Assembly (NCBI GenBank): GCA_964497315.1
Contig: CAZCCH010000015.1
Location: 1-33,743 of the forward strand
Reading direction: 5' to 3'
DNA: 33,743 nt
From: an uncultured Planctomycetia bacterium
GTDB lineage: Bacteria; Omnitrophota; Gorgyraeia; Taenaricolales; CAZCCH01
Under the pieces are notes generated by a model. The model was not told where the DNA came from, did no database searches, and was given only the letters and a program-made list of their open reading frames with translations. A program made the position numbers and the translations under genes. The number at the start of each line of letters is the position of its first letter. Within the stretch, counting starts at the first letter, position 1. Positions 2,423 to 29,254 of this stretch are shown piece by piece.

Positions 2423-3454
2423 ATGAGAAAAGCCACATTAATTTTTATAACATTGAACTTAATGCTTTTTTTAACTATTTCTTTATATGCAGCAGAGCCA
2501 AAAGAATATCAGCCCTATGGTCCGTTACCTGTGAAAAATCAGATGCCGCTCTATATCTTCTTTTTATCTTTTTCCCCAGATAAAGCAGAAGTTGTTAATG
2601 AAGGAAAATTTACCTATGATTTTGGCTATCAGGTATCAAATGGGGTATTAGACAAAGTCACAACCGGTACAGAAGACTATATAATTCAGATAGATACAGA
2701 AGTAAATAGATTCCATGTGGATTTAAGGTATGGCGTCCATGAAAATGCCGAAGTGGCGTTGGAGGTTCCATATATAAGATTTTCCAGAGGGTACTTGGAT
2801 GGGTTTATTGAAGGCTTTGAAGAGACGTTTAATTTCACAACCCCGGGTGCAAGAGAAAACTCCGACAGGAATAGCTATAAATATGAAGTACGAAAAGGGG
2901 GTGTCTACGCCATACGTTCGAATACACCCCATGGTACACTTGGGGATTCACTGCTGAGCTTTAAATACAAGTTGCTTGATGAATGCGATAATTATCCTTG
3001 GCCAACGTTTTCTGTTAAAGGAACACTAAAAATCCCCACTGGATCAAAAAGCAAATTGACAGGGAATGAGGAATGGGAAGGGGGTATTTCTTTATTGGCT
3101 GATAATTCTTTTTCAGATAGATGGTTTGGATATTTAAATTTCAACACAGCGTTTATACAAGAACCATCATTTTTTGAAGGTTGGGACATAGATAGCTATA
3201 TCATATCAGGGACCGTTGCCACTGAGTACTTTTTTACAAAAGGTTTGTCTACTATTTTGCAGCTATCTATAAACACAACCCCATATCCCTCAAGTGGAAC
3301 CGATCCCCTTGATAACGATGCATACGATGTGGCATGGGGATTTAACTATAAGTATACTGATTCAATAGAAGGACGTATATACGCAACTGAGAATCTAGAG
3401 ACAGATTCTTCTCCGGACTTTGGTCTTGGTGGTGGGTTTAAATTGAAGTGGTAA
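2423..3454 (+). CDS. Putative outer-membrane beta-barrel protein (unknown function)
   Basis: N-terminal signal peptide (LTISLYA|AEP). Alternating hydrophobic pattern rich in Y/G/N/D/T. C-terminus GGGFKLKW ends in an aromatic residue as in OMPs. AGGAGG lies upstream of the ATG. Confidence 0.5.
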   Translation: MRKATLIFITLNLMLFLTISLYAAEPKEYQPYGPLPVKNQMPLYIFFLSFSPDKAEVVNEGKFTYDFGYQVSNGVLDKVTTGTEDYIIQIDTEVNRFHVDLRYGVHENAEVALEVPYIRFSRGYLDGFIEGFEETFNFTTPGARENSDRNSYKYEVRKGGVYAIRSNTPHGTLGDSLLSFKYKLLDECDNYPWPTFSVKGTLKIPTGSKSKLTGNEEWEGGISLLADNSFSDRWFGYLNFNTAFIQEPSFFEGWDIDSYIISGTVATEYFFTKGLSTILQLSINTTPYPSSGTDPLDNDAYDVAWGFNYKYTDSIEGRIYATENLETDSSPDFGLGGGFKLKW

Positions 3455-6520: not shown

Positions 6521-7086
6521 AAAAGATTAATTTACCAGAAGGAAAATATGGTAGGGTTTTAACTTCAGACCCAGTAATTATAATAACCACAGTTGATAAA
6601 GATGGTAACGTAAATGGAGCTGCCTTTGGTTCTTATGTTAGAATTTCACCTTATATCTTGGTAGCGATTTATCCAGGACACCATACTTATGAGAACATAA
6701 AGAAGACAAAAGAATTTGTGGTAAACCTACCAGGAAAGGATCAGCTTGAGTCTATAATGGTATTTGGTAGGTATTATCCAGAAGGTACCAATGAGGTAAA
6801 AGAGGCAGGATTGAAGTGCGTTCCATCTGTTAAAGTAGCTCCACCCAGGATTGCAGAATATAAGGCACACATAGAATGTGTGTTTAAATGGAAAAAGCAA
6901 GTAAGTTCACACATGCTTGTAGCAGGGGAAATGGTTGCTGCTTCTTGTGATGAAGGCTTGCTTGATAAAGATAATTATTTTGATGTGGTAAAAGCCGGGG
7001 TGTTACACATAGTCCGATATCCTAAGCCTATATATATATCTGCAGAAGGCTATATAGAAGGAAAGAATACCAAAGAGTTGCCATAA
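6517..7086 (+). CDS. Flavin reductase-like FMN-binding domain protein (flavoredoxin-like)
   Basis: PVIIITTVDKDGNVNGAAFGS ... TYENIKKTKEFVVNLP pattern typical of the flavin-reductase-like split-barrel domain. Confidence 0.75.
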   Translation: MKKINLPEGKYGRVLTSDPVIIITTVDKDGNVNGAAFGSYVRISPYILVAIYPGHHTYENIKKTKEFVVNLPGKDQLESIMVFGRYYPEGTNEVKEAGLKCVPSVKVAPPRIAEYKAHIECVFKWKKQVSSHMLVAGEMVAASCDEGLLDKDNYFDVVKAGVLHIVRYPKPIYISAEGYIEGKNTKELP

Positions 7087-7089
7087 CCA

Positions 7090-7929
7090 ATGAAAAGAAT
7101 TGCAGGGTTTGTTTTTTTAGCTATGTTTTTGATATTAGCACTAGGAGAGGCTACCTATTCAAATTATTCTTTCGGTCTATCTGATAAAAAAGAAGTTGAA
7201 ATAGGCCAAAGGGCAGATAAACAAGTAAGGCGTAAGTTTGGTGGGACATACAAAGATAAAGAACTACAAAAATACGTAGAGACAGTAGGGCTTAAACTGG
7301 TTTCTGTTTGCGAAAGACCAAATCTTTATTATCACTTTGTAATATTGAATAATAAAGAGCTTAATGCCATGGCGGTTCCAGGTGGATATGTCTATGTTAC
7401 TAAGGGTATGCTTAGAGTATTGCAGAACGAAGCCCAGCTTGCAGCAGTCTTAGGCCATGAAATCGCTCATATTGCACGAAGGCACGGTGCAGAAAAAATA
7501 GATCAGGATATGACAATGAATCTTTTATTTATGATAGCCGGTATCGTTGCCTCAAGGAGTTCCGAAAAGACTGCCAAGACTGCTACAAGGATTATGCGGG
7601 GGGTGAGGACAGCCTATAATTTTGCTGCCTTAGGTTATGGGCGGCAGCATGAGTTTGAGGCGGATTGGAAAGGCACCGAATATGCCTATAGGGTTGGTTA
7701 TGACCCACAAGGAGCTGTACAGGTACTAAATATCTTACAAGAGGAAGAGAAGAAAAACCCTACTTTGATGTTGGATTTCTTGCGCTCTCATCCAAAGACT
7801 ACTGAACGAATAGATAAAGTAAGACAGCTTATGTTTAACTTACAACTTGATCCAAGATATAGCAGGGTAAAGGGTAAATTTTATCCTGAGAGATACTTAA
7901 AAAAAATAGCCCCTCTTTATAGGGAATAA
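7090..7929 (+). CDS. M48-family zinc metallopeptidase (exported)
   Basis: Signal peptide, [13 protein letters not shown] (HExxH) and a downstream [10 protein letters not shown] third-ligand region typical of M48/BepA-like peptidases. Confidence 0.88.
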
Positions 7930-7958
7930 AAATATTTAACCAAACAAGGAGGTATGAA

Positions 7959-8705
7959 ATGTCTTTATTTCATATGGTAATTGTTGTTATAGTTTTTTAT
8001 GTTGTCTCATGTATTAAAATCTTGAATGAATATGAGAGGGCAGTTATATTTCGTTTAGGAAGAGTGCTTAAAAGACCAAAGGGTCCAGGCCTTGTAATTA
8101 TATTCAGGCCAATTGACACTGCTGTTAAAGTAAGCCTAAGGACTGTTACCTTAGATGTTCCTCCGCAGGATATTATAACCAAAGATAATGTTTCTGTAAA
8201 AGTAAACGCGGTAGTGTATTTTAAGGTTATGGAACCAATAAAGGCCATAATAGAAGTTGAAGACTATAAGTTTGCTACTTCTCAAATGGCACAGACTACC
8301 TTACGAAGCATAATAGGCCAACTTGAGCTTGATGAACTTTTATCTGGAAGAGAGAAGATTAATAGCCAGCTTCAGTCGATATTAGACAAGCAGACAGACC
8401 CCTGGGGCATAAAGGTTTCAAATGTTGAAGTAAAACACGTTGATATAACAGAAGAGCTAAAAAGGGCCATGGCAAGACAGGCAGAAGCAGAAAGAGAAAG
8501 GCGTGCTAAGGTCATAGCAGCAGAGGGAGAGTATCAGGCAGCAGAAAAACTTGTTGCAGCCGCAGAAAAGATGAAAGATCACCCAATGGCGTTACAAATG
8601 CGCTATCTGCAGACCTTGGTAGAAGTTGGAACAGAAAACAACACGACTACGATATTTCCCGTGCCAGTGGACTTTTTAAAAACTTTTATGAAAAAAGATA
8701 AATAG
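7959..8705 (+). CDS. SPFH/band-7 (stomatin-like) membrane protein
   Basis: N-terminal TM helix, then [16 protein letters not shown]...GPGL...[24 protein letters not shown] and a [19 protein letters not shown] coiled region typical of prokaryotic stomatins. A GGAGG SD lies 6 nt upstream. Confidence 0.9.
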
Positions 8706-12234: not shown

Positions 12235-14562
12235 ATGCGAAACCTACAAAACAGACAAAATAAGACATTTATCTTAAAACCTCCTGGGACGTATAAAACT
12301 AAACGCAAGGAGCGTCTAATTAAACCTACCAAACGAAAACCATCCATAAAGAAAAAAATCACTGTAATATTTCTTCTTGTATCAATAGCATTATGCTCTG
12401 ATTTATTTGCAGAAAGGCCAAGCTATGCAAATCAGCGCCGACCTAAAATTGGATTAGTCTTAGGTGGCGGTGGTGCTAGGGGTGCTGCACATGTAGGGGT
12501 ATTAAGGGTTTTAGAAGAAAATAGAGTACCGATAGATTATGTTGTAGGTACTAGCATGGGTTCTATAGTAGGTGGTTTGTATGCATCGGGCGTTTCCGTA
12601 GAAGAGCTAGGGGAGATATTTGAATCTATTGACTGGAAAGGCCTCTTTACAGATAGGCCATCACGCAAAGATTTGCCTTTTCGTCATAAGCAAGACAGAA
12701 GAAAACTAATTGATTTTGAAATGGGTTTTAATAAAGGGAAATTGTCTATGCCTAAAGGTATTATTGCAGGTCAGAAGCTAGAATTTATTTTAAAGTCAAA
12801 AACCCTGCATGTTACAGGCGTTGAAGATTTTAATCAACTTTCAATTCCTTATAGGGCCGTAGCCGCTGATATTGAAACAGGCCAAAAGGTTGTTTTAGAT
12901 AGAGGCAATCTTGCTGAGGCGATAAGGGCCAGCATGTCAGTACCAGGTGTGTTTTCTCCTGTTGAGATAGATAATCATATATTAGTAGATGGCGGGATTG
13001 TGGATAATTTACCTGTGGATGTAGTGCGGGATATGGGTGCTGATATCGTTATCGCGGTTGATGTAGGTACAAAGCTCACTAAGCGCGAACAGCTAAAATC
13101 CGCCCTAGATATCTCCATGCAGGTAATAAGTATTTTAACCTTACAGAATGTTAATGAGCAAATTTCTAAGCTTACCAAAAAAGACTTATTAATTACACCC
13201 GAGCTAGGTGATACCTCTTCTTCGGATTTCCATAATGCTCCAGAGATTGTTAAGATTGGAGAGGAATCGGCACGTAATTTTACAAAACAACTAGAGAGAT
13301 ATTCTGTTTCAGATGAGGAGTATCAAATCTTTTTAACAAAACAAAGAAAAAAAGAATTAAAATCAATAAAGATTGATTTTATGGAGGTTACTTCTACGGG
13401 AGGGGCGGCACCTCAAAGGATACAGGCAAAGGTAAAGACAAAGTCAAATACAGAATTAGACCTTGATGTCCTTCAGGAGGATTTAACACGCATATATGCA
13501 ATGGGGGAGTTTGAAAAAGCAGATTTTAAAATTCTTGAAAAACAAGACAAGACAGGTCTTTTAATTAATACTACGGAAAAATCCTGGGGTCCTAACTATT
13601 TACGTTTTGGGCTAAATATCACAGACGATTTTGAAGGTGATAGTTATTATAATTTTCTTACGGAATATACCCGCACACAAGTTAACGCACTTGGTGCTGA
13701 ATGGAAGACTGAGGCCCAGATAGGCAGAACGCGCAAGGTGCTCACTCAATTTTATCAGCCGTTGGATTATGCAGACCGTTTCTTTATTGTACCTAGTATC
13801 GAATACAGCCGTAGCGTTTCAGATATATTTGAGGGTGATACCCGCACAGCGCAATACAAATTAGCCTACTTGCAAGGAGGTCTTGACGCTGGTATAAATA
13901 TAGGGACTTGCGCATTGGGTAAAATAGGAATTGTAAGGGGTAATACGGAGGCAGGTCCACTTGTAGGTGGTGAGAGCTTGCCGGAATTTAATATTGATAC
14001 AGCTGCATTAACAAGTGAGGTTATATTTGATCAAATAGATGATTCAAATTTTCCTAAATATGGAATAACATCTGATGCTTATCTTTTTCTATCGCAAAGA
14101 GGACTCGGCGCTGATGAAAGTTATAAAAAGTTACAATTCCAAGCAATTAAGGCAACTACCTTTGGTGGTAGACATACCTTCCTTGCAGATATAGAAGGTG
14201 GGGCAAACCTAGGAAAAGAAATACCATTTTATGATGAATTTACAATAGGTGGTTTTTTATCCTTGTCTGGCTATAGAAAAGGCCAATTAAGAGGGCAGTA
14301 TTTTGGTTTAGGGAGGCTTGTATATTATTATAAGGTTGCTAATGCGTCTTCCGGGTTGGCAGATGCTATTTATATTGGTGGTTCTGCTGAGAGTGGAAAT
14401 GTATGGGATAAGAGCAATGAGATTGAAATTGGCAATTTACTCCATGGTGGTAGTGTGTTTTTAGGTGTTGACAATATCTTTGGCCCATTGTATTTAGGGT
14501 ATGGCCTTGCTGAAGATAGTGAAGAGGGAAGGTTTTATCTATTTTTAGGTCAAACATTTTAA
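12235..14562 (+). CDS. Patatin-like phospholipase fused to a POTRA/Omp85-type beta-barrel (PlpD/type Vd autotransporter-like)
   Basis: GLVLGGGGARGAAHVGVL oxyanion loop, GTSMGS lipase serine and DGGIVDN catalytic Asp. The C-terminal ~300 aa are beta-strand-rich and end GQTF (aromatic terminus), as in surface-antigen/BamA-type barrels. Confidence 0.88.
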   Translation: MRNLQNRQNKTFILKPPGTYKTKRKERLIKPTKRKPSIKKKITVIFLLVSIALCSDLFAERPSYANQRRPKIGLVLGGGGARGAAHVGVLRVLEENRVPIDYVVGTSMGSIVGGLYASGVSVEELGEIFESIDWKGLFTDRPSRKDLPFRHKQDRRKLIDFEMGFNKGKLSMPKGIIAGQKLEFILKSKTLHVTGVEDFNQLSIPYRAVAADIETGQKVVLDRGNLAEAIRASMSVPGVFSPVEIDNHILVDGGIVDNLPVDVVRDMGADIVIAVDVGTKLTKREQLKSALDISMQVISILTLQNVNEQISKLTKKDLLITPELGDTSSSDFHNAPEIVKIGEESARNFTKQLERYSVSDEEYQIFLTKQRKKELKSIKIDFMEVTSTGGAAPQRIQAKVKTKSNTELDLDVLQEDLTRIYAMGEFEKADFKILEKQDKTGLLINTTEKSWGPNYLRFGLNITDDFEGDSYYNFLTEYTRTQVNALGAEWKTEAQIGRTRKVLTQFYQPLDYADRFFIVPSIEYSRSVSDIFEGDTRTAQYKLAYLQGGLDAGINIGTCALGKIGIVRGNTEAGPLVGGESLPEFNIDTAALTSEVIFDQIDDSNFPKYGITSDAYLFLSQRGLGADESYKKLQFQAIKATTFGGRHTFLADIEGGANLGKEIPFYDEFTIGGFLSLSGYRKGQLRGQYFGLGRLVYYYKVANASSGLADAIYIGGSAESGNVWDKSNEIEIGNLLHGGSVFLGVDNIFGPLYLGYGLAEDSEEGRFYLFLGQTF

Positions 14563-18762: not shown

Positions 18763-18900
18763 TACTTTTATTTATAATGAGTTATATAATATAGTTAGCA
18801 AAACAAAAAGTAAGATTTTTACCCTTGCTTTTTGCCAATATTATGGTATACTTATATATTGATATAGTAAAATAAAAGCTAATTTTGGTAATATAGCCGT

Positions 18901-18987
18901 CCTCGACAAAGGTAAACTCGACCAAAAAGAGGTGGGGTTCGCAAAGCTGCGGGTCTAATTTTAAATAGATAGCCGGGCTGTCGAAGG
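18901..18987 (+). ncRNA. Candidate GEMM-I-like cyclic-dinucleotide riboswitch aptamer in the giant-gene leader
   Basis: Hand alignment to the V. cholerae Vc2 aptamer recalled from memory: GACAAAGG / UCGCAAAGCUGCGGGUCUAA / AUAGAUAGCCGGGCUGUCGAAGG versus GGCAAACC / ACGCAAAGCCUCCGGCCUAA / GUAGGUAGCGGGGUUACCGAUGG. A closing helix forms between CCTCGAC (18901-07) and GTCGAAGG (18980-87). Not verified with a covariance model. Confidence 0.5.
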
Positions 18988-19011
18988 AAACTATTTCGGC
19001 AGTCTTTTTTT
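18976..19011 (+). terminator. Intrinsic terminator / expression platform overlapping the 3' arm of the aptamer
   Basis: GGCTGTCGAA (18976-85) pairs with TTCGGCAGTC (18995-19004) around a 9-nt loop, followed by seven T. It lies 23 nt upstream of the giant-ORF ATG. Confidence 0.65.
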
Positions 19012-19033
19012 ATCTAAAAAATAGACTATTATT

Positions 19034-22000
19034 ATGAAACTATCAAACTCTAATATCCACAAAATTATATCAATAGCACTCCTTGTGACGTTTATGATGT
19101 CACTGATAGGGCCGGAGCTTGCCTTAGCTTCTTCTGAAACCCTTAGACCCCATGTTACATCAAGAAAAAAACCTCTTCTAAAAGAGATGATTGCAAGGTT
19201 TACTGAGTTGCAACGTCCTTCAGTAGCATCTAGTGCAGAAGACTTTAGAAAAGATGAAGTGCGCATAGTTAGAGAAATGACTGAAGCTGGACAGCTTTAT
19301 TTTCGCCATGAACCAGAAAAACCAAGTGCAATATACTATATACCATTTTTGCGATATAGAGCAAGGCTTACACGTTGTAGGGGTGTAGCTGATTATACCA
19401 GTGCTGTGTTGAATGAGAAAGATAGAAGGTTTTCTACATTTAAGAGTGAGCGCGATGGTTTTGAGCGTTGGTTTAGAACTTCCCAGGAAGGTTTTCCATC
19501 GGCAGCATTGTACGACATTGATGTTCATCCTCAAGACTTAAATGATGCCATTGCAGCACTCATAGAGCAGAAGACCAAAGAAAAGGACAATACCATTACT
19601 GTCAGGGCCTTCGGTTCTGGTTTACCGGCCTTACTTTTACCTGGAGATCCAGCTACACTTCTAGCAGGAGATGTTGAAATAGAAACTATTTTAAAGTTTA
19701 TATTATCAGGTCTAAGGCATACCAGGAATAAAGCAAAATGGACTGTGGTAGTTTATGTATATGATAAAAAGACAGCTTATTTAGGGCAACTGGAAAAGGT
19801 TCTTTTGGAAAAATTAGAAAACTCACCAATGCCATTTAATATTGTATTAAATCTTAGATATGGTGATATAGCAGATAGAGAGCAATACCCATATATGTTT
19901 GAAGAACAAAGTGACATTAATGTTTGCCGTAATATCACTCAAAGTGGTGAGAGTTTTTCTAAAGGAGATAGTATTTTTCATGGGCAATTAGTTAATAGCC
20001 TGTCACCTCATGGGTTTATTATACATGGTGCGCGTAGAAGGGGAGATAGGATTATATTAGCTTCTGATAGAGATGCTCTTAAGAGGTTAAGTGGCGATTT
20101 TCTGGATAGTAATTCTTCAGAAGATGAAGCTACTAGTAGGTTTTCAGAAATAGGTGCAATAGGTCACTTGGAAGAGGAAAGAAAAACAGAAGATCTTATT
20201 GCTGCATTGACTGCCTTTGATATTCCTTTTATACCCACAGAAAGCAATTGTGAATTTACAAGAATTTCCGCAGGTCATTCAAACCTTACGTATAATATTA
20301 AGCATAATGGCAAAAATAGGCATATTCTTCAACAAATGAGCACAATTTATGATGCAAATGCCCTTAATGCTAATCTGAACTTATTAGAACAGGCTCAAGA
20401 TGCATGGCTTAAGGAAGGCGCAGAAGATGAATACTGGCAGCCCGTTCATTATGTTAATGTCAAGGGCGCTTCTGATAAGCTATATTGTGATACAGCAGGC
20501 AGAATTTGGCGTTTAATGGATTATATTCCAGGAGAGGTTTTTGGAAAATTTAGTGATGTTCCTCAGAGTGATCGTAGAGAGATTGCCCAATCTCTTGGTA
20601 GGGCAATTGTTGTTTTTCGAAGAATGCTAGAATCAGTTCCTTTAGAAAGCTGGGAAAAGGATATGTCAGGTTTTCATGATCCACAATACTTTTATGCTTA
20701 TCTTCATTCTATTTGGCTGGGTCAGGAGGTGCCATTGAATTTTACTGATGGATCATCACATATGGTAGTTAGAGATCCTAGCGTAACAAGTGAATATTCA
20801 GAAAGAATAAATCTCTTAAAGAGAAAGATTGAAGATAGGAGACATATCTTAACTAGCTTAGATGAACTTGGCCAGGTTGTTTCACATGGAGATTTAAAGA
20901 TTGATAACCTATTCTTCCGAAAACACAAAGGCCGCTGGAAGTGCATATCTATTGCTGATTTAGATACGATACAACCTAGAAACGTCCTTACTGATCTTGG
21001 TGATGCACTGCGTTCTGCCGGCAACCCAGCTGGGTCAGAACCGAGAGCAATAGATGATGTAACAATAGATGTTGATGTGGTCACAAATATAATAAATGGA
21101 TACCTAGAAGCCACAGCAGGGTTTTATGATCACACAGAGGCAGAGCGCTTGAGACCACATACTATTGAGGCATTTAAACTTCTTCTGTATGGGCAGTCTA
21201 TGTGGTATTTAGCAGATGCACTTACTAATAGCGCATACTTTAATATAGGTGCAGAGAGAGCGCTATATAAGGCAGAGGTGCAGATGAGGGCATTGGAGCA
21301 GTTGGAAGAGTTAAGTCTAATTAAAGATGGCCCATTTGCTGATTTTGTCAAACCTGATGCCAGTAGGTTTGGGGAAAGGACTGCCGAAGAACGAATTGCT
21401 GCGCTGCGGGAAGATTTGGTGTATTATGAAGCAGCCGCGACAGCGTCTTCAGCACCTGATCAGGATTTTCCAGATGATATTTGTGATGTAGGTACAGGCG
21501 AAGCCCACCTGATGAATGAAGTCCACATTGCAGCTGATTCTGATGAGCGCCCTGAAAGAATAATTAGCGCATACACCGCTGGTCCTTGCCGGGCATATGT
21601 TATTAAAGGTAGAGTAAATGATGAGACAAGATTGTTTCTACGACATAGAGCTGCGGTAGAGGGCATACTTGATGATTTAAGAGAAGATATAGCCGCTTTA
21701 GAGAGAGCTGGCATGCAAGATAGAGAGGTTGTTTTTAAGCTTGATTTAAAGACGCAAGCCGGCCTGGAGGTCGTGAGGCTTGGATGGGTTTCTCCAGAAG
21801 AACTGAGGGAAAAAATTAAGGAAATATGCGGGCCTCGAATCTATACAGAAGAAGGCATTTTCCCACATGAAATTACTGATGTAATTGCAACCCAGGAAGG
21901 AGTAGTTATTTATTGCCCATATAATTCTAATGCCTCCAAGATTATCTTATGGCCAGAAAGCAAGGAAGGTGTATTCATGGATGCTGTATTGCCCAATGCA

Positions 22001-25000
22001 GAAGTCGTAGAGGATGAGGCATTTTCTGCTCAAAGCAGGTTTGGGGAAATGGCTGTTGATGCACTCAAGGGGAACATAAAGAGAGCGGTGTCTGTATTTA
22101 GGGATACGGCTATTGTAAAAAGTCCACAGTTAATAGAGGAAGACAAAAACAGAGTTTGGGTTATTAACAATATCTTTGAAGATAGATTCCTTCTAGATAG
22201 CGTAGTTTTAAAAGATCCAGACCCTAAACATGAAGAATATTTTTATGCTTCAAGAGAAGGGCTTGATATGTATGAGGCCCATTTTGAGAGTGACTATCCT
22301 CGCGTTGAAATAGCCCAAACAGTGATAATCGATAATCCGAAGGAAAATGATCTAGTTGGTACAAAAAGGGCATCACAGTGCCTTCCACTACTATTTGCTA
22401 ATATTCCTGATAACAAGCCCAACATGATAGGTTCTTCTCATATATTCACTTCGACAGACCCGACATTTTCATCCTTGGGTGATAAACTTCTTGACGCTGG
22501 ATATGAAAACCTAATTGTTGTAATTCCTCGTCCGAAAAAGCTTGGACGAACCGTAGCTCCATTCGCATTAAGAACATCTCAGTATGAGGAGGTGATAGCT
22601 AATATGCGAGCTAAAGGAATTACAGTATACGAGGTACCTTATCAAGACGTTTCAATAAGTGCTGCCGCAACAGCAGATGGTTTTGCGATATTCATAGAAA
22701 AATTCGTTGACCCCACAACAAAAAGGACAAAAGACATTGAAGAATTTGTTCTTCTTGAACCTATAAAAACATGGCAAGAATTCTCAAGTAGGTTTGGGGA
22801 GGTTGCTATTATTGAAGGTAATGCTGCACCGGAAGTTCTTCCGGCAACAGAGAATAGGATAGAGCTTGCGTTGAATATGCCTTCTGAAAGGGCTACGCAA
22901 ACAGGAACTGCCTGTATTAGACCCACGAAGGAAAGGGGATTTGCTGATGTATGGAGCCGCAGGGATTTTATGAAAGCCGGTGCTTTTGCTACGACTGTAG
23001 CAACTGTTTTTGGCAGTTTACCGAAGACCGGAGTTGCTGCTACGCCAGATGCTATTAAAGTCAAGGCAAAGGAGCTTTGTACACAATATTTAAAAGATGT
23101 TTGCGATGAGAAGATAACACTTGGACTAGATAATAGTTTAGGAACCTGGCGTGAAGTTCTCAAGGACAGGGAAGAATACGCCGACTTACTCAAGCCCGAT
23201 AATAATTATGCATTGCTTACTGCGTTTGTTTTTGACACGTTGTTTCCTGCGCTAGAGGAAGCTGCAAGCCGAACACGTGTCAGTGCCCATAACGCATCTA
23301 TAAATATAGAATTAGCCTTAATGAATCTCTTGGATAAAAAAGATGAAAAGGTCGAGGCATTTTTACGTCATACCTTAGCCAGGACCACTGACTCCTTGGT
23401 TAGAACAAGACGAATCCAGAATAAGGTAGAACGCGATAGACGAATTGGTATTGCACTGCAAAGACTGGAGAGCGCCTCTGCTTACATAGGGCCAGAGATT
23501 TCAGATAAGCTGGTTAGTATAGTCAAATTACACGATAGTTTAACGCAGCTTGGTCTGGAGCAAAAGGAAGAGATAGAAAGAGTATCCATGGAGATCAATA
23601 GTTTGATAATAGACCTAAATAAAATTCTAATTCCGCTTGGCTTATACTGCAGGGTTTCAATGAATGTAAGTCTGGGTGATGACAAAGAGCATATCTACAT
23701 CAAGTCGTTTAAAATAGAAAAAACCCGTTTATATAAAGCAACTGACGGCAAAGTTGTTAAGGTCTATATTGTAAAAGGGATAGATAACATAGCTATAACA
23801 AATGTCTTTGGTTTTCGCAGACTGGAAACAGACTATGCTGTAGTAATTTTAGATAATATAGAATCCAAAGCGAGAGACATAGAGGAAGTCCTAAAACATG
23901 GAAAATCTGATGCCCATAAGGATATAGAGAGCAGGCTGACTGCAATTGGGAAAGCAAGATTAGCAGACCTAAGGGTTTTACTTGTTGAGCTGGCAAAAAA
24001 GGAATTTAGTGGTTTGACCAGACAGCAAATAATGAATAAGATTCAAGTTTTAATCGAGACCCACGAGATAAGACATGTATTAGATAGGGGTAACTTTACA
24101 AGGGAAGAGCGCGATAAAAAAGAAGGTTCGGCTTTTATGGCAGAATTGATTCTGGCAGAATTGATTACAGGTACAGCTACATATTATAGTGTATTAAAAT
24201 GGGCTGAACATGTATTCAGAGGAGGAGAGCATGATTATGCCGCAAGGATGGTATTTGAAGGATTGATGAAAAAAGCAAAAGAGAAGGGATATGTAAATGC
24301 ATCCGTAAACCTGAAACATGTTAGCTTTAGAGAGTTGATAAAGACAGTAGAGACATTGCGCAGGCTAAGTAAGGGTGAAATTGCAGGTCTGGCAAGAGAG
24401 TCCTATAAAGAAATATTTGGTTTTGAATTTATAGATGCCTTGCCTGTCATTCAGCCTCCTGGTCGCTTTACCGAGCCAAAAAAGACAGCAACGTGTGAAA
24501 TAGCAATTAGAGGGAGAATGCATATTATACCCTCAGACTTGCTTGCCTATGAGCTATCAAACCTTTATAACGCAGTTAGGGGTAAGATTAATTTTACATT
24601 TAAGAAGGAGCTAGGAGACGATAGAGTTCTTGAAATGACTAATCCCGGGACAATAACTAATATTCTTAGCTTTGGACTGGGGCCTGGGGATATTCTAGAA
24701 GTTAGCGTGGAAGAGGACCTACCACGAGATGTGCAGGAAGAGGCATTGAATTACATTGAGGCTTTGTTTAATAGCTACCATATACTACAAGCAACTCAAT
24801 TGGCGCAGATGCATGGTGCTGAGCAGGCACGGATGGCTTTAGGTGGAACACCCTATGTTGATCTTGCCTCAGCAGAGCAGTATGGATTGGAGATAGTGCG
24901 TTCAGATCTATCTAGCAGTCTTTGGCCTGCATTAAGAAGACTAATAAGCATGTTGAAGCGTGATGTTGAGATTTCTCGTTTTACAGAAAGGGGAGATGAA

Positions 25001-28000
25001 ATACCCACTTCACCAGTCGATCCTGCAAGGTTTAGGGAAGATAGTAGGCTCATAGATGAGCGGGCAAGGGATATGCTGAAGGTGCTGTGTGAAAGCAGGC
25101 GCAGCCAGCCAACCAACACCAAAGCACGAAGGGCATTGGTGCGTTTAGAACACCTCGTGGATTCCAGATGGTCGTATGGTGAACAGTGGAGCGAAGTTAT
25201 CGATACATTGCGCGAAGCCGGACTCATCACCTCAGATACGGCAGGGTGGCTCGGCAGTTTGGATGATGAAGTTGTGCGCAGAACCATGTTCTATGTGACT
25301 GTGCGTTATCTTGACATAATGGAGCATGAAGTTTTATTTCACGGAACCTCACTGCATAACATAGACAGTATCAAGAAACATGGTCTGCACCCTGAGCATG
25401 TACCCCCGGGCAAAGAAGAACTTCAAAGGGTATTTGGCATAGTAGGCAAGGCGCTCGGAGAAGATCGCGCAATGGAGATTACAGAAGGTCAATTAAGTTT
25501 TGAATATGATCTAAGCCTTGCTAATTTTTACTTTGCTATCCTAGGCCCTGAGATGTTGCGAAGAGCGATAGGGGATTTACAAGAAATAAAGAAGCTAGGT
25601 TTTCCTGAAATTGATGAAGCAGATAGAAAATTTATAGAATATTTTCTTGAGCACTGGAATGATGGGTATCTTTCTTCAAACCAGCCATGCCTTCTGGCCG
25701 TACCGTTTAAGACAATCGTACAGTTTATGGATTTAGAGCAAGACGCTTACCAAAGGGATCGGACTAGGTTTCTGAAAAGGCCGCACGAATTTTTTAATGA
25801 TGTTATATTGCTTTACCTGTTTCCTTGGGAAACCTGGGTGGGGGAGGGTACATTGTTACCATTCCGCCTTCCAGCGCTTGATAAAATTGAAACAGCAATG
25901 CACGAACAAATGGCCGTTACCTTCCATGACGTGCATACATATTCCAGACCTAACTATGATCTGGGTGATATTTATGTTGTTACTGGTAAAAGAGATGCCC
26001 TCAATCTAGTACCGCTAAAACAAGTAGAAATAGATGAGCTTGAGAGAACCGCTGTTGTCCTCAGAGAAGTAAATCAAGAATGTCAAGAAAAACAAGGAGA
26101 AGTTTTCAATCGTAGCTTTTCTTCCCAGGAAGCACTTGATTTTTGCGCCGAGCTTCACAGCATTGCCCGGGAAGCCATTGCCAAGTCAAATTATGAGAGA
26201 ACCGATGGGTTATCAGGTGCTCGCTTTTCTGAGCAAGTTGAGTTTGTGGAGGATAAACTGGTCAGGGAACCAATAGAGGATGAAAATCTAACCTTGGACC
26301 AAGTGGAACAAATTGAAAGAGACAGACAGCAGATTGAAGCAGAATTGACTCGGCACTACGGGGATGCCGAGGCGTTTTTTGGAGAAGGACCACGTGATGG
26401 GATAAGAATTATTGCAACCACTGATGAAGAAGGCGAATTGATAGCAACTAGCCCCATTTATTATATAGCCCAAGGGGTAGCAATAAATGAGACCAGGCAA
26501 GAGGTATTGCTGAATTATCTTAATACGACTAGAGCGGGGATAGCAGAAGAAGGTTCGCGATATACGGTTTTTCATGAGATGGGTCACTGGGCTAATGAAA
26601 GTAGAGGTATTTCTAGTATAGTGCGGGAATTGATAGGTCCACAGATGGAGGAGATAGCGGCTTCGCATATTGAGAGGCATCCGGATGAATTGGGATTTTA
26701 CCTTGACTTGTATAATTCAAAGCTTAGAGAAGGTGAGATTCCTGTGGATAGGCTGCAAGAGTTACTGAAAGGCTGTTTAGTCGTCAAAGGCCTTACGCTT
26801 TTCGAGGATTGCTTGGTTGACAGGCAGTTATTAGAGTTAGCTCGCGCAGGAGATCTCGAAGGACTTGACAGAGAATTAATTGGTACAAGGAAAATACTTT
26901 TAGGCGATAAGCTAAAACAGCCAGATCTTTGTTGTCTCGCCATACTTAGATACAGGCTGCTTGAGGAAGTATATTCTCCAGATGATAGGACCAAGGTAGA
27001 TATTTTCCCGGATGACTTCAATCCAGAAAACTTTGGAATAAACGCAGAAATGATGAAGCAGATAGATGATGATGCGCGAGCGATGGCTGTGGCAATCAGG
27101 GGTGCGGAGCGCATGATAGCTAAATACGCGCCAGGAAAAATTGCGCCTCCAGGAGATTTGAGGGATTTAAAAGGCAGGCTGAAGTCATCTGTTGGAGATT
27201 TTATGCGACCATTGAAGAAATATCTTACCATTCCTGCGCTAATTTCTTATTTCAAGCTTAATCATACCCGAGTAGATCCCACGCGTTTCACCGAGGGTAC
27301 GGGTTCACTTAGTGCGGAGGGAAATTTGCCCGGCGATCAAACACTAGGTACTAGTGATTATTCCCCTGCCCGGTTTGTGGAAGGGGATGCCATTGCGCAA
27401 TGGCCTATTTCTATTGACGAGGCATTATTAAGAAGTGGTGAGTCTGCACGAGCTATTGCTGTAGAACCTGACTATGTTCCACCTTATGGAGTTTTAGCTC
27501 CTGGAGCTATTAATATTTCTGATTATCTCGCACTTGGCATGCTTGCTGCTTCAGGGATATCAAGTGAGCCGCAAGGGCAGGATGGGAAATTGAGCCGCAG
27601 GACGTTTCTTAAAGCTGCAGCCGCAGGAGCAGGCGTGGCAATTGGCAGCGCAGTAGTTCACAAGGTTCTAAAAAGCGATGATATAACACCGCGCATTTTA
27701 GATGATGCAGCCGATGAAAGATTAAGAAATGCTGGTAAGGCGATAAGTGCTAAATTCATGCATGTCTATGAAGAATACAAGGACAAAAATCCCGCCGAAA
27801 CAAAGCTGGTACGTGCACTTTTTAGAAAAATAAATGACCACAAGACAGAAAAGGAGATCATGCACCATCCTGAGCTTAAACACAAAAAAGATAACGTAGA
27901 CGTACTAATGGGTATAGGCGAACCTGCCGATGATAATGGTGAATCCCCTATCTATCTTTCATATAGCATACTGGGCCAACCCGATGAGATATTATGGGCA

Positions 28001-29113
28001 AAAATGGTCCACGAAGGATGGCATGCATATAATGAAATCCTCAAGAAGGCCAGTGGTGCAGCGGAGGCTATACGGCATGCACAAGATGAGATGCTTGCTA
28101 ATATAACCGAATGGGTTGAAAATCCCCAAAATCGCGATTCCATTAAAAGATATTTTAGCATTTGGGTAAATGAAGAGGAAATTGCCAATAGCTTGGAAAG
28201 AGCAGTTTTTGTTAGAGAAATAGGCGGTTCAGACAATGAGGCTATCGAAAGATTTGTGCAAAAAGCTATACAGCAAAATCCCAGGGCTCAGGCAGATACG
28301 GGCTCAGGCAGCAAAGAGAGAAAAGAGGCCTATGCGAGACATCTGAGAAGGTATGTAAGAGATCGAATACTGAGATATTATCGAATTCCCTCGTTACATG
28401 GTAGATTGCGATATATACTTAGTAGCTATTATTCACATGTAAAACCTGCTGTGTACATCGGGTTATTTCTAACAGAATTTTATGAAGGACGAGCTGATCA
28501 TCGAACTAGGACAACGAGCCCAGGCAGAAAGTTCTTCATAGGGCCAGATAGAATCGAACTAAATATAAGATCTCATGGAGCTAGTGGGCAGCAAAGGCTT
28601 ATTCTTACGCCTAAAGAGAATTTTTTAGAATGGGCATCGAACTGGGCAAATTCTGAGGAATATAAAAGATTGTTTGTGAAACCAGAAGGCCTTACGAAAA
28701 TGCGCGGTTCCCGCTTTTCCGAAGCCTCCCAAGCCATATTTGGCAAAATTGAGCAACCCACAGGCATAATAATGAAAGCAGATTTTGCTACTAAAATCTT
28801 TCCAGTTTTGCCAGAGTTAGCAGTCCACTTTGGCCAAAAGGTAACAATTGCTGTAGTGGGCCCTTCACAGCTAAAGGAGAGAATAACCAAAGTAAATGCA
28901 GTCTTGCCACATGATGTATCTATTATACTATGCGATACCATTGATGAAGCAGCCAAGGAGTTGTCTGAGAGAGGTATAGGCCTTATCAGATTACTCACCA
29001 GAAAAACAATAAAAGACCTTCCTTTGGTTCGTGAAACCCTCCTTATTACAGAGAAGACCCTACAGCTAATAGATGAGTTGAGATCCCGCAAAGAAATAGC
29101 TGGTGGGGCATAA
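19034..29113 (+). CDS. Giant (3,359-aa) multi-module secreted/membrane protein of unknown function
   Basis: Uninterrupted 10,080-nt ORF. N-terminal Sec-type signal (aa 1-32, ALA|SS). Internal kinase-like, HPr-like and HExxH segments, plus two internal twin-arginine signal-like segments. See findings. Confidence 0.9.
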   Translation: MKLSNSNIHKIISIALLVTFMMSLIGPELALASSETLRPHVTSRKKPLLKEMIARFTELQRPSVASSAEDFRKDEVRIVREMTEAGQLYFRHEPEKPSAIYYIPFLRYRARLTRCRGVADYTSAVLNEKDRRFSTFKSERDGFERWFRTSQEGFPSAALYDIDVHPQDLNDAIAALIEQKTKEKDNTITVRAFGSGLPALLLPGDPATLLAGDVEIETILKFILSGLRHTRNKAKWTVVVYVYDKKTAYLGQLEKVLLEKLENSPMPFNIVLNLRYGDIADREQYPYMFEEQSDINVCRNITQSGESFSKGDSIFHGQLVNSLSPHGFIIHGARRRGDRIILASDRDALKRLSGDFLDSNSSEDEATSRFSEIGAIGHLEEERKTEDLIAALTAFDIPFIPTESNCEFTRISAGHSNLTYNIKHNGKNRHILQQMSTIYDANALNANLNLLEQAQDAWLKEGAEDEYWQPVHYVNVKGASDKLYCDTAGRIWRLMDYIPGEVFGKFSDVPQSDRREIAQSLGRAIVVFRRMLESVPLESWEKDMSGFHDPQYFYAYLHSIWLGQEVPLNFTDGSSHMVVRDPSVTSEYSERINLLKRKIEDRRHILTSLDELGQVVSHGDLKIDNLFFRKHKGRWKCISIADLDTIQPRNVLTDLGDALRSAGNPAGSEPRAIDDVTIDVDVVTNIINGYLEATAGFYDHTEAERLRPHTIEAFKLLLYGQSMWYLADALTNSAYFNIGAERALYKAEVQMRALEQLEELSLIKDGPFADFVKPDASRFGERTAEERIAALREDLVYYEAAATASSAPDQDFPDDICDVGTGEAHLMNEVHIAADSDERPERIISAYTAGPCRAYVIKGRVNDETRLFLRHRAAVEGILDDLREDIAALERAGMQDREVVFKLDLKTQAGLEVVRLGWVSPEELREKIKEICGPRIYTEEGIFPHEITDVIATQEGVVIYCPYNSNASKIILWPESKEGVFMDAVLPNAEVVEDEAFSAQSRFGEMAVDALKGNIKRAVSVFRDTAIVKSPQLIEEDKNRVWVINNIFEDRFLLDSVVLKDPDPKHEEYFYASREGLDMYEAHFESDYPRVEIAQTVIIDNPKENDLVGTKRASQCLPLLFANIPDNKPNMIGSSHIFTSTDPTFSSLGDKLLDAGYENLIVVIPRPKKLGRTVAPFALRTSQYEEVIANMRAKGITVYEVPYQDVSISAAATADGFAIFIEKFVDPTTKRTKDIEEFVLLEPIKTWQEFSSRFGEVAIIEGNAAPEVLPATENRIELALNMPSERATQTGTACIRPTKERGFADVWSRRDFMKAGAFATTVATVFGSLPKTGVAATPDAIKVKAKELCTQYLKDVCDEKITLGLDNSLGTWREVLKDREEYADLLKPDNNYALLTAFVFDTLFPALEEAASRTRVSAHNASINIELALMNLLDKKDEKVEAFLRHTLARTTDSLVRTRRIQNKVERDRRIGIALQRLESASAYIGPEISDKLVSIVKLHDSLTQLGLEQKEEIERVSMEINSLIIDLNKILIPLGLYCRVSMNVSLGDDKEHIYIKSFKIEKTRLYKATDGKVVKVYIVKGIDNIAITNVFGFRRLETDYAVVILDNIESKARDIEEVLKHGKSDAHKDIESRLTAIGKARLADLRVLLVELAKKEFSGLTRQQIMNKIQVLIETHEIRHVLDRGNFTREERDKKEGSAFMAELILAELITGTATYYSVLKWAEHVFRGGEHDYAARMVFEGLMKKAKEKGYVNASVNLKHVSFRELIKTVETLRRLSKGEIAGLARESYKEIFGFEFIDALPVIQPPGRFTEPKKTATCEIAIRGRMHIIPSDLLAYELSNLYNAVRGKINFTFKKELGDDRVLEMTNPGTITNILSFGLGPGDILEVSVEEDLPRDVQEEALNYIEALFNSYHILQATQLAQMHGAEQARMALGGTPYVDLASAEQYGLEIVRSDLSSSLWPALRRLISMLKRDVEISRFTERGDEIPTSPVDPARFREDSRLIDERARDMLKVLCESRRSQPTNTKARRALVRLEHLVDSRWSYGEQWSEVIDTLREAGLITSDTAGWLGSLDDEVVRRTMFYVTVRYLDIMEHEVLFHGTSLHNIDSIKKHGLHPEHVPPGKEELQRVFGIVGKALGEDRAMEITEGQLSFEYDLSLANFYFAILGPEMLRRAIGDLQEIKKLGFPEIDEADRKFIEYFLEHWNDGYLSSNQPCLLAVPFKTIVQFMDLEQDAYQRDRTRFLKRPHEFFNDVILLYLFPWETWVGEGTLLPFRLPALDKIETAMHEQMAVTFHDVHTYSRPNYDLGDIYVVTGKRDALNLVPLKQVEIDELERTAVVLREVNQECQEKQGEVFNRSFSSQEALDFCAELHSIAREAIAKSNYERTDGLSGARFSEQVEFVEDKLVREPIEDENLTLDQVEQIERDRQQIEAELTRHYGDAEAFFGEGPRDGIRIIATTDEEGELIATSPIYYIAQGVAINETRQEVLLNYLNTTRAGIAEEGSRYTVFHEMGHWANESRGISSIVRELIGPQMEEIAASHIERHPDELGFYLDLYNSKLREGEIPVDRLQELLKGCLVVKGLTLFEDCLVDRQLLELARAGDLEGLDRELIGTRKILLGDKLKQPDLCCLAILRYRLLEEVYSPDDRTKVDIFPDDFNPENFGINAEMMKQIDDDARAMAVAIRGAERMIAKYAPGKIAPPGDLRDLKGRLKSSVGDFMRPLKKYLTIPALISYFKLNHTRVDPTRFTEGTGSLSAEGNLPGDQTLGTSDYSPARFVEGDAIAQWPISIDEALLRSGESARAIAVEPDYVPPYGVLAPGAINISDYLALGMLAASGISSEPQGQDGKLSRRTFLKAAAAGAGVAIGSAVVHKVLKSDDITPRILDDAADERLRNAGKAISAKFMHVYEEYKDKNPAETKLVRALFRKINDHKTEKEIMHHPELKHKKDNVDVLMGIGEPADDNGESPIYLSYSILGQPDEILWAKMVHEGWHAYNEILKKASGAAEAIRHAQDEMLANITEWVENPQNRDSIKRYFSIWVNEEEIANSLERAVFVREIGGSDNEAIERFVQKAIQQNPRAQADTGSGSKERKEAYARHLRRYVRDRILRYYRIPSLHGRLRYILSSYYSHVKPAVYIGLFLTEFYEGRADHRTRTTSPGRKFFIGPDRIELNIRSHGASGQQRLILTPKENFLEWASNWANSEEYKRLFVKPEGLTKMRGSRFSEASQAIFGKIEQPTGIIMKADFATKIFPVLPELAVHFGQKVTIAVVGPSQLKERITKVNAVLPHDVSIILCDTIDEAAKELSERGIGLIRLLTRKTIKDLPLVRETLLITEKTLQLIDELRSRKEIAGGA

Positions 29114-29165
29114 TAAAGACAAAGTAAAATCCCCAAAGAAAAATAATTTATTAAAAGAAAAGCCC

Positions 29166-29194
29166 TTGACAGAAGGGAGTTTCTGGTATATACT
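29166..29194 (+). promoter_or_regulatory. Sigma-70-type promoter for the DUF134 gene
   Basis: Consensus TTGACA (29166-71) with TGgTATATACT (29184-94) giving a 15-17-nt spacer. A perfect 12-bp palindrome GAGCATATGCTC (29201-12) lies just downstream. Confidence 0.5.
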
Positions 29195-29254
29195 ATTAAC
29201 GAGCATATGCTCATAATAAATAGGGGGTTTATAGAGAGAGTAGTTGGAGGAGGC

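Follow-up and report, generated by a model that had tools for sequence, protein, structure and literature searches.

Two groups of bacterial toxins are the closest described analogues of the protein reported here. MARTX toxins are large secreted proteins whose unrelated enzyme modules are shuffled at linker boundaries and freed by an internal protease, and polymorphic toxins of the Tox-MPTase kind are secreted multi-domain proteins that end in small, exchangeable HExxH cargo modules, beside ADP-ribosyltransferase (ART) and kinase-type toxin domains. A protein that recalls both is encoded in a 33,743-nt stretch of DNA from an uncultured Planctomycetia bacterium placed by GTDB in the Omnitrophota (assembly GCA_964497315.1, contig CAZCCH010000015.1, positions 1 to 33,743 of the forward strand; this whole stretch is called the window). 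An open reading frame (ORF) of 3359 codons at 19034–29113 (+) specifies the giant protein; unless another locus is named, nucleotide positions below refer to the + strand of the window and residue numbers to this protein. It contains three HExxH motifs, the hallmark of the zincin metallopeptidases, and 12 copies of a short RFxE motif that set off 13 segments. The three HExxH motifs are real and non-random, exceeding what chance would supply. We tentatively read the segments that carry them as mutually unrelated, highly divergent zincin-like hydrolase modules, interchangeable cargo of a secreted multi-effector protein, a reading that we hold at slightly under even probability.

The likeness to MARTX toxins extends to the conserved linker motif, which is a possible processing site. 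The giant protein nevertheless falls outside the MARTX definition: a Pfam scan of the whole sequence (E ≤ 1) revealed neither RTX (glycine-rich) repeats nor an internal cysteine protease domain, its leader is of the Sec type and not type I, and it has internal signals of the twin-arginine translocation (Tat) type. MARTX linkers are cut at Leu sites, and [S/A]RFxE is far more specific. As in polymorphic toxins, the modules vary between relatives. Unlike those toxins, the giant protein carries its cargo modules in series and not as a single one at the C terminus, the Pfam scan found no known trafficking domain (Rhs/YD, PAAR, LXG or similar), and the downstream side offers no evident immunity gene: a DUF134 regulator is encoded there first, and no immunity candidate was identified.

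The original prediction had located the three motifs correctly within the ORF at 19034–29113 (+): HEIRH at residues 1677–1681 (24062–24076), HEMGH at 2514–2518 (26573–26587), and HEGWH at 2993–2997 (28010–28024). They are the only HExxH motifs in this one ORF and conform to the motif of MEROPS clan MA. The composition of the giant protein (His 2.3%, Glu 9.0%) leads one to expect 0.16 such motifs where 3 are observed, and three or more occurred in 0.05% of 2000 shuffles of its sequence (P ∼5e-4). Their density, 0.89 per 1000 residues, is ∼19 times the background of 0.047, which was obtained from 485,000 residues in ORFs of at least 250 amino acids at 80 unrelated bacterial loci. They are not clustered in one repetitive region; each lies in its own RFxE-bounded module. 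The only other HExxH among the long ORFs of the window is the HEIAH of a Peptidase_M48 gene (7090–7929).

Several features around the motifs recall zincins and gluzincins (clan MA; e.g., thermolysin M4, M1, and M48). The HExxH residues are predicted to be helical, hydrophobic residues precede them, and acidic or His residues 15–33 positions downstream could supply a third metal ligand. A Glu-rich stretch had been proposed downstream of HEIRH. There is indeed a Glu-containing one, EGSAFMAE (residues 1697–1704, 24122–24145), which follows the second His at a spacing of 15 residues. Read from the sequence, it may form a "glutamate helix," with E1697 as the candidate third ligand. We take the arrangement HEIRH-x15-EGSAFMAE to resemble the HExxH-x18-E-G-x-A of the M1/Peptidase_MA gluzincins, although it gives no Pfam match. 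Unlike described zincins, the modules have no profile similarity to curated families and are embedded in a multi-module protein of 3359 residues.

The RFxE motif is even more over-represented, with 12 copies against 0.89 expected. The copies start at residues 55, 369, 778, 1002, 1253, 1811, 1982, 1999, 2397, 2751, 2780, and 3227 and follow the consensus [S/A/T/G]-R-F-[S/G/T/A]-E in surroundings rich in Ser, Pro, Asp, and Gly, as in a linker. Those bordering the HExxH modules lie at 22790–22801, 24464–24475, 26222–26233 (RFSE), 27284–27295, 27371–27382, and 28712–28723. Two of the segments between neighboring sites are mini-segments of only 17 and 29 amino acids. A repeat or recombination site at the level of DNA was ruled out, since the codons for Arg, Phe, and Glu vary among the sites; selection therefore works at the level of the protein. 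Two related proteins, P0003 and P0010, contain seven and three copies, respectively, and each has an additional HFAE in its leader. Across 87 loci, no further long ORF reaches three copies. The sites coincide with the boundaries of module homology in the giant protein, P0003, and P0010; short linkers ending in [S/A]-R-F-x-E join the modules, which family members swap at exactly these points.

If the motifs are metal sites, they would form the catalytic helices of three modules. Module 6 (residues 1257–1814, 22802–24475), between RFGE 1253–1256 and RFTE 1811–1814, contains HEIRH and a Tat-like signal. Module 10 (2401–2754, 26234–27295) contains HEMGH and is delimited by RFSE 2397–2400 and RFTE 2751–2754. 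Module 12 (2784–3230, 27383–28723), with HEGWH and a Tat signal, extends from RFVE 2780–2783 to RFSE 3227–3230. These modules would sit beside kinase-like and ART-like modules in a protein exported by Sec. The leader (residues 1–58, 19034–19207) has a K-rich n-region, a 16-residue hydrophobic core, the sequence P-x-x-A-L-A, and the first RFTE, and it reads as a Sec-type signal peptide. The sole confidently annotated enzyme domain is APH, an aminoglycoside/choline-kinase-type phosphotransferase (residues 408–672, 20255–21049; E 2e-10). With 9% Glu, the protein is rich in this residue, and its predicted structure is mostly helical. It is identical to a public protein, P0006, from JGI metagenome contig Ga0118720_1001580.

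Relatives are few. An exhaustive HMMER search with residues 2003–3202 against 1.84 billion cluster representatives (∼15 billion proteins) returned the giant protein itself and only four others, and each matches a single module. P0003 (1706 amino acids) matches module 10 over residues 779–1155, from RFAE to RFAE, with 38% identity. Module 12 is matched, with 61% identity, by P0002 and by P0010 (1126 amino acids), which is the full-length version of P0002; the homologous region of P0010, residues 463–909, is 447 residues long, as is module 12, is related over its whole length, and has RFxE on both sides. Homology of modules 10 and 12 to P0003 and P0010 starts and stops at RFxE. P0004 and P0005 match only residues 2003–2400, with 25%–31% identity. 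The leader is common to the giant protein, P0003 (45% identity, E 1e-10), and P0010, and the first (R/H)FxE lies 11–23 residues past P-x-x-A-L-A. P0003 and P0010 share a C-terminal module (41% identity) and carry P-loop-like modules. A C-terminal module common to the whole family was considered and rejected, as that of the giant protein is unlike theirs.

Other searches gave nothing further. A word-indexed search with residues 2401–3230 and with an alignment of the three leaders had zero matches, although relatives exist in the collection. It missed even the query's own entry, and its negatives are unreliable for this family. No relatives of the HExxH modules or the leader were found in genome, metagenome, or viral contigs, and tblastn against plasmids returned nothing.

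The relatives allow limited tests of conservation. HEMGH is replaced by HEVVH in P0003; thus, the two His residues and the Glu are kept and the middle residues change, in modules that share 38% identity and in which 4 of 6 His and 13 of 39 Glu of module 10 are conserved. Two candidate third ligands for HEMGH are conserved in P0003: H2545 (26666–26668), 27 residues after the second His of the motif, and D2551. HEGWH lies inside a block of 19 invariant residues, QPDEILWAKMVHEGWHAYN, which is the longest identical run between module 12 and P0010, and its 21-residue window is among the 5% most conserved in the module. A second invariant stretch, AQDEM (residues 3016–3020, 28079–28093), follows 19–23 residues past HEGWH. 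It includes candidate third ligands D3018 and E3019, 21–22 residues after the second His. For both motifs, then, the conserved candidate ligands are 21–33 residues downstream.

A number of observations weigh against a zincin assignment. Pfam, NCBIfam, and PHROGs assign none of the three HExxH regions to a curated peptidase family, and the same tool detected the M48 peptidase of the window at E 3.6e-34. The only peptidase-like hit, Tox-MPTase3 (PF15639) over residues 2491–2540, a stretch that contains HEMGH, reached 12.4 bits (E 0.18) with a cut-off of 25 bits; this assignment was rejected because it is below threshold and the P0003 module has no match at E ≤ 10. Sequence and profile searches of the PDB (phmmer and hmmsearch) gave no relevant match. 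AlphaFold2 models were of low confidence (predicted local distance difference test, pLDDT): the mean was 48.0 for module 10 with one orthologue and 40.8 for a chimera of residues 1560–1814 and 2880–3230 with P0010, and the motif regions were below 45 in both. In the zincin fold, the motif occupies an active-site helix that an edge strand precedes, alongside a mixed beta-sheet. That these models put HEMGH and HEGWH within helices favors the zincin reading; a Foldseek comparison of both with the PDB found nothing at E ≤ 0.001, only generic helical bundles. With pLDDT this low, the models are too poor to position a third ligand or to judge how the His and Glu residues are arranged. Conservation also has to be read with care. 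Given the per-residue conservation rates, P0003 would keep both His residues and the Glu with a ∼15% chance, which makes this modest evidence, and local identity around HEMGH is no more than average for its module. The relatives were found by querying with these very modules, so that their HExxH motifs are not independent evidence. HEIRH has no known homologue and hence no support from conservation; the word-indexed search found none for module 6, and that search missed even the relatives of modules 10 and 12. Finally, the Gly-Trp between the ligands of HEGWH is atypical for zincins. What speaks for zincin-like modules is the motif statistics together with limited conservation.

The original prediction also described the contexts of HEMGH and HEGWH as clearly paralogous, which suggested to it duplicated metalloprotease-like domains. 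No sequence or profile comparison bears this out. With ∼190-residue segments around the two motifs, the motif-centered BLASTP alignment has an E value of only 1.7. hhalign gave the two module alignments a probability of 0.3%, and its top match leaves the motifs unaligned. In a Smith-Waterman test in which HExxH was fixed and the flanks were shuffled, z was 0.9, and 20% of shuffles scored equally well (p = 0.2). Self-BLAST revealed no internal repeats in the giant protein. The two modules are thus unrelated in sequence and profile tests, and the proposed duplication is not supported. A shared upstream SPIY survives in part. It occurs just twice in the protein, each time before an HExxH (residues 2473–2476, 26450–26461, and 2971–2974, 27944–27955), but the gap to the motif is 37 residues in the HEMGH module and 18 in the HEGWH module; the equivalents are SPLLY in P0003 and APIY in P0010. 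A supposedly common downstream NE is not maintained, being DR in P0003 and NK in P0010. At most, what the two modules have in common is a hydrophobic strand of the form (S/A)-P-h-h-Y, at no fixed distance upstream of HExxH.

The description of the HEGWH module as headed by a Tat signal was borne out, and a similar feature was found in module 6, such that two of the three HExxH modules (6 and 12) carry Tat-like signals. In module 12, RRTFLK (residues 2855–2860, 27596–27613) precedes an A/G-rich hydrophobic region. Residues 2852–2874 score 23.9 bits with Pfam TAT_signal (cut-off 22.7) and 25.1 with TIGR01409 (cut-off 16.7), they show the S/T-R-R-x-F-L-K motif and moderately hydrophobic region of Tat signals, and the motif is kept in P0010. 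In module 6, RRDFMK (residues 1309–1314, 22958–22975) is followed by an Ala/Thr/Gly-rich hydrophobic stretch; here, the TAT_signal score is below threshold (14.3 bits, E 0.04). TIGR01409 reports two stretches in the giant protein. Both signals are internal, 53–72 residues past an RFxE, and not at the N terminus as in Tat substrates; they would be N-terminal only if the protein were cleaved at RFxE. Such internal Tat signals are odd alongside the N-terminal Sec-type signal of the same protein.

Two further modules bear on the nature of the cargo. Module 9 (residues 2003–2400, 25040–26233), which immediately precedes the HEMGH module, includes a region of the form HGT...YFA and matches PARP (E 0.004) and RNA 2'-phosphotransferase weakly on the same residues. 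These weak matches recur at the same residues in P0004 (31% identity to module 9, E 3e-33) and P0005, and we read the module as probably ART- or PARP-like. Module 7 (residues 1815–1985, 24476–24988) appears HPr-like by eye (GRMHIIPSD...LGPGDILEVSVEE), and residues 1856–1913 match PTS-HPr weakly (E 0.12, profile positions 34–80 of 81).

The adjacency of modules 9 and 10 recalls anthrax lethal factor, which combines a zincin with an ART-like domain. The ART-like module is accompanied by an HExxH, at most a few hundred residues away, in P0004 and P0005 as well as in the giant protein; the pairing consists of ART at 125–454 and HELLH at 654 in P0004, and of HELSH at 2106 and ART at 2208–2600 in P0005. 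The resemblance has limits. No sequence similarity to lethal factor is found, the three proteins show no similarity to one another in their HExxH regions, and P0003 has an HEMGH-type module without an ART module.

How the HExxH motifs are to be explained depends on how these observations are weighed. On a cautious view, they are not metal sites at all; they would be His/Glu patterns on helix surfaces in mostly alpha-helical domains of some other function, conserved for structure or binding, and their number a post hoc coincidence. This view draws support from the failure of family, PDB, and fold searches to back a peptidase domain, from the Glu-rich and largely helical character of the protein, from the absence of conservation evidence for HEIRH, and from the average local identity around HEMGH. 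It is harder to reconcile with P ∼5e-4 by composition and a frequency 19 times the empirical background, with the persistence of both His residues and the Glu in P0003 despite changes between them, with the position of HEGWH at the center of the most conserved block of module 12, and with the occurrence of each motif in a different RFxE-bounded module. We regard it as unlikely, although by no means negligible. Alternatively, the motifs may bind metal in proteins other than peptidases, either envelope-acting hydrolases or amidases, or structural zinc sites that require folding in the cytoplasm. Tat typically exports pre-folded, often cofactor-bearing proteins, and the Tat-type signals on two of the three HExxH modules would suit such a role, as would the lack of similarity to any peptidase family. 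HExxH is overwhelmingly a signature of peptidases and amidases, however, and positive evidence for another activity is missing, which makes this explanation improbable.

A different function was suggested by the original prediction, namely that the HExxH modules process the polyprotein itself. They would cut the [S/A]-R-F-x-E linkers, plausibly at the R/F bond, and free the modules, the two Tat-headed ones among them; zincins usually prefer a hydrophobic P1' residue, which would suit this bond. RFxE may mark processing sites. It occurs 12 times where 0.89 are expected, with varied codons and in linker-like sequence at exact module boundaries; the 17- and 29-residue mini-segments between paired sites resemble spacer peptides; the internal Tat signals make sense only with a free N terminus nearby; and every family member seen has at least one HExxH module. 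The last point is biased by the way in which the relatives were found. Moreover, P0003 has only an HEMGH-type and P0010 only an HEGWH-type module, yet both use the same motif, so either two unrelated enzymes must share one unusual specificity or a protease acting in trans does the work. RFxE would equally suit a Glu-specific endopeptidase (hydrophobic-x-Glu) or serve as a non-proteolytic docking motif. There is, in our judgment, little chance that the HExxH modules are the processing enzymes. A bolder scenario combines several of these elements. After secretion or inside prey, zincin-like modules would cut at [S/A]R/FxE and release ∼10 enzymes (kinase, ADP-ribosyltransferase, and several hydrolases), and the two Tat-headed HExxH modules would be re-exported by a Tat system, possibly that of the prey, to attack the envelope from within, and c-di-GMP would turn all of this on by way of the leader riboswitch. 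As a whole, this scenario is decidedly improbable. The tentatively favored reading, zincin-like cargo of a secreted multi-effector protein, implies that the HExxH modules would bind zinc and catalyze hydrolysis. The modules would probably act on another cell, in line with the logic of effectors and toxins, because the kinase and ADP-ribosyltransferase need ATP and NAD+ while the leader exports the protein.

The giant gene is preceded by a candidate regulatory element, an aptamer of the cyclic di-GMP (c-di-GMP)-I riboswitch family (GEMM-I, RF01051) at 18901–18985 (+), 48 nt before the ATG. The aptamer lies in the 5' leader, and its score of 43.5 bits exceeds the gathering score of 35. Under permissive filters, the model of the c-di-GMP-I-GGC variant gave 41.8 bits, below its cut-off of 59; the exact ligand is thus ambiguous. 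A promoter-like site (18832–18860) lies upstream of the aptamer, and a terminator-like 12-bp hairpin with a T-run (18975–19005) overlaps and uses its 3' end. This layout suggests that the ligand-bound aptamer holds the strand and blocks the terminator, turning the gene on; the riboswitch would then gate expression of the giant protein. The same riboswitch family occurs directly upstream of the start of P0005 (L086, 644–763 (+), 36.6 bits). P0005 (2809 amino acids), which has a signal-peptide-like sequence at its probable true start (MRHLAQNNNVIFKLITIVIV...), shares the ART-like module alone with the giant protein. For P0003 (L081) and P0010 (L083), the upstream sequence yielded no c-di-GMP-I aptamer, although for P0010 it amounts to only 243 nt. 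There is a precedent in Clostridioides difficile, where the gene for a secreted zinc metalloprotease, zmpI, is reported to be under the control of a c-di-GMP riboswitch (PMC6200980, PMC6366702).

The neighborhood of the giant gene is cellular. Genes in the window encode a D-Tyr-tRNA deacylase, an inositol monophosphatase, endonuclease III, the M48 peptidase, a fusion of a patatin-like phospholipase with an Omp85-family outer-membrane protein (12235–14562 (+); E 8e-35 and 5e-11), Fic, acetolactate decarboxylase, DUF134, and Dus proteins. The best match of the Dus protein, at 66% identity, comes from an Omnitrophota metagenome-assembled genome, and the next-best matches are likewise from Omnitrophota; in the closest genome, no giant gene lies beside dus. 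A phage origin was rejected on account of the housekeeping neighbors and the lack of PHROG matches. Locus L083, from a related member of the Omnitrophota whose flanking proteins are 58%–82% identical, keeps the order VIT1, acetolactate decarboxylase, 132-amino-acid ORF, and DUF134. Where the window has the 10-kb giant gene (18763–29206), L083 has an ORF of 173 amino acids and a LAGLIDADG endonuclease gene (6877–7984). P0010 is encoded elsewhere in L083, upstream of a Fic gene. Because the giant gene is absent from this syntenic site and its GC content (0.40–0.44) is 4–7 points above that of its surroundings (0.36–0.38), it looks like a variable insertion and not part of the core genome.

Prepilin-type (N_methyl) genes were seen near two of the relatives, at 86–598 in L081, immediately upstream of P0003, and at 12507–13133 in L083, ∼9 kb from P0010, beside an unannotated ORF of 979 amino acids. 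They may point to a link with type IV pilus-like machinery.

Giant ORFs are already known from the Omnitrophota (PMC10066038; bioRxiv 10.1101/2023.11.21.568195). Like the protein described here, they come from this phylum, are long, poorly annotated and poorly conserved, and appear as secreted or surface proteins in a context of predation or symbiosis. Unlike it, they are longer than 20 kb, with numerous transmembrane helices and with domains of the adhesin type; here, the gene is 10 kb and encodes enzyme-like modules separated by RFxE. In a 2026 survey of long Omnitrophota proteins, no mention was found of HExxH, zincin, metalloprotease, or twin-arginine, and a literature search turned up nothing that describes these modules, the RFxE motif, Omnitrophota polyproteins, or such an architecture.

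Should the HExxH motifs prove non-catalytic, they would be a statistical curiosity in an orphan protein, and the RFxE architecture would stay the more interesting feature. Should they be zincins, they would add new families to a known class of enzymes, set in a variation on the multi-effector toxin. With real metal sites, they would amount to three unrecognized zincin-like families, invisible to current profile libraries and nearly without homologues in ∼15 billion proteins. The RFxE-punctuated, riboswitch-controlled architecture is more striking than the HExxH finding alone; the combination of a five-residue linker motif, internal Tat signals, and a cyclic-dinucleotide riboswitch is apparently undescribed for bacteria. 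A predatory or parasitic way of life has been proposed for most Omnitrophota (PMC10066038), and an effector role for the giant protein fits this lifestyle. If the favored reading is correct, a c-di-GMP-induced array of effectors would provide a testable molecular handle on how these uncultured bacteria attack other cells.

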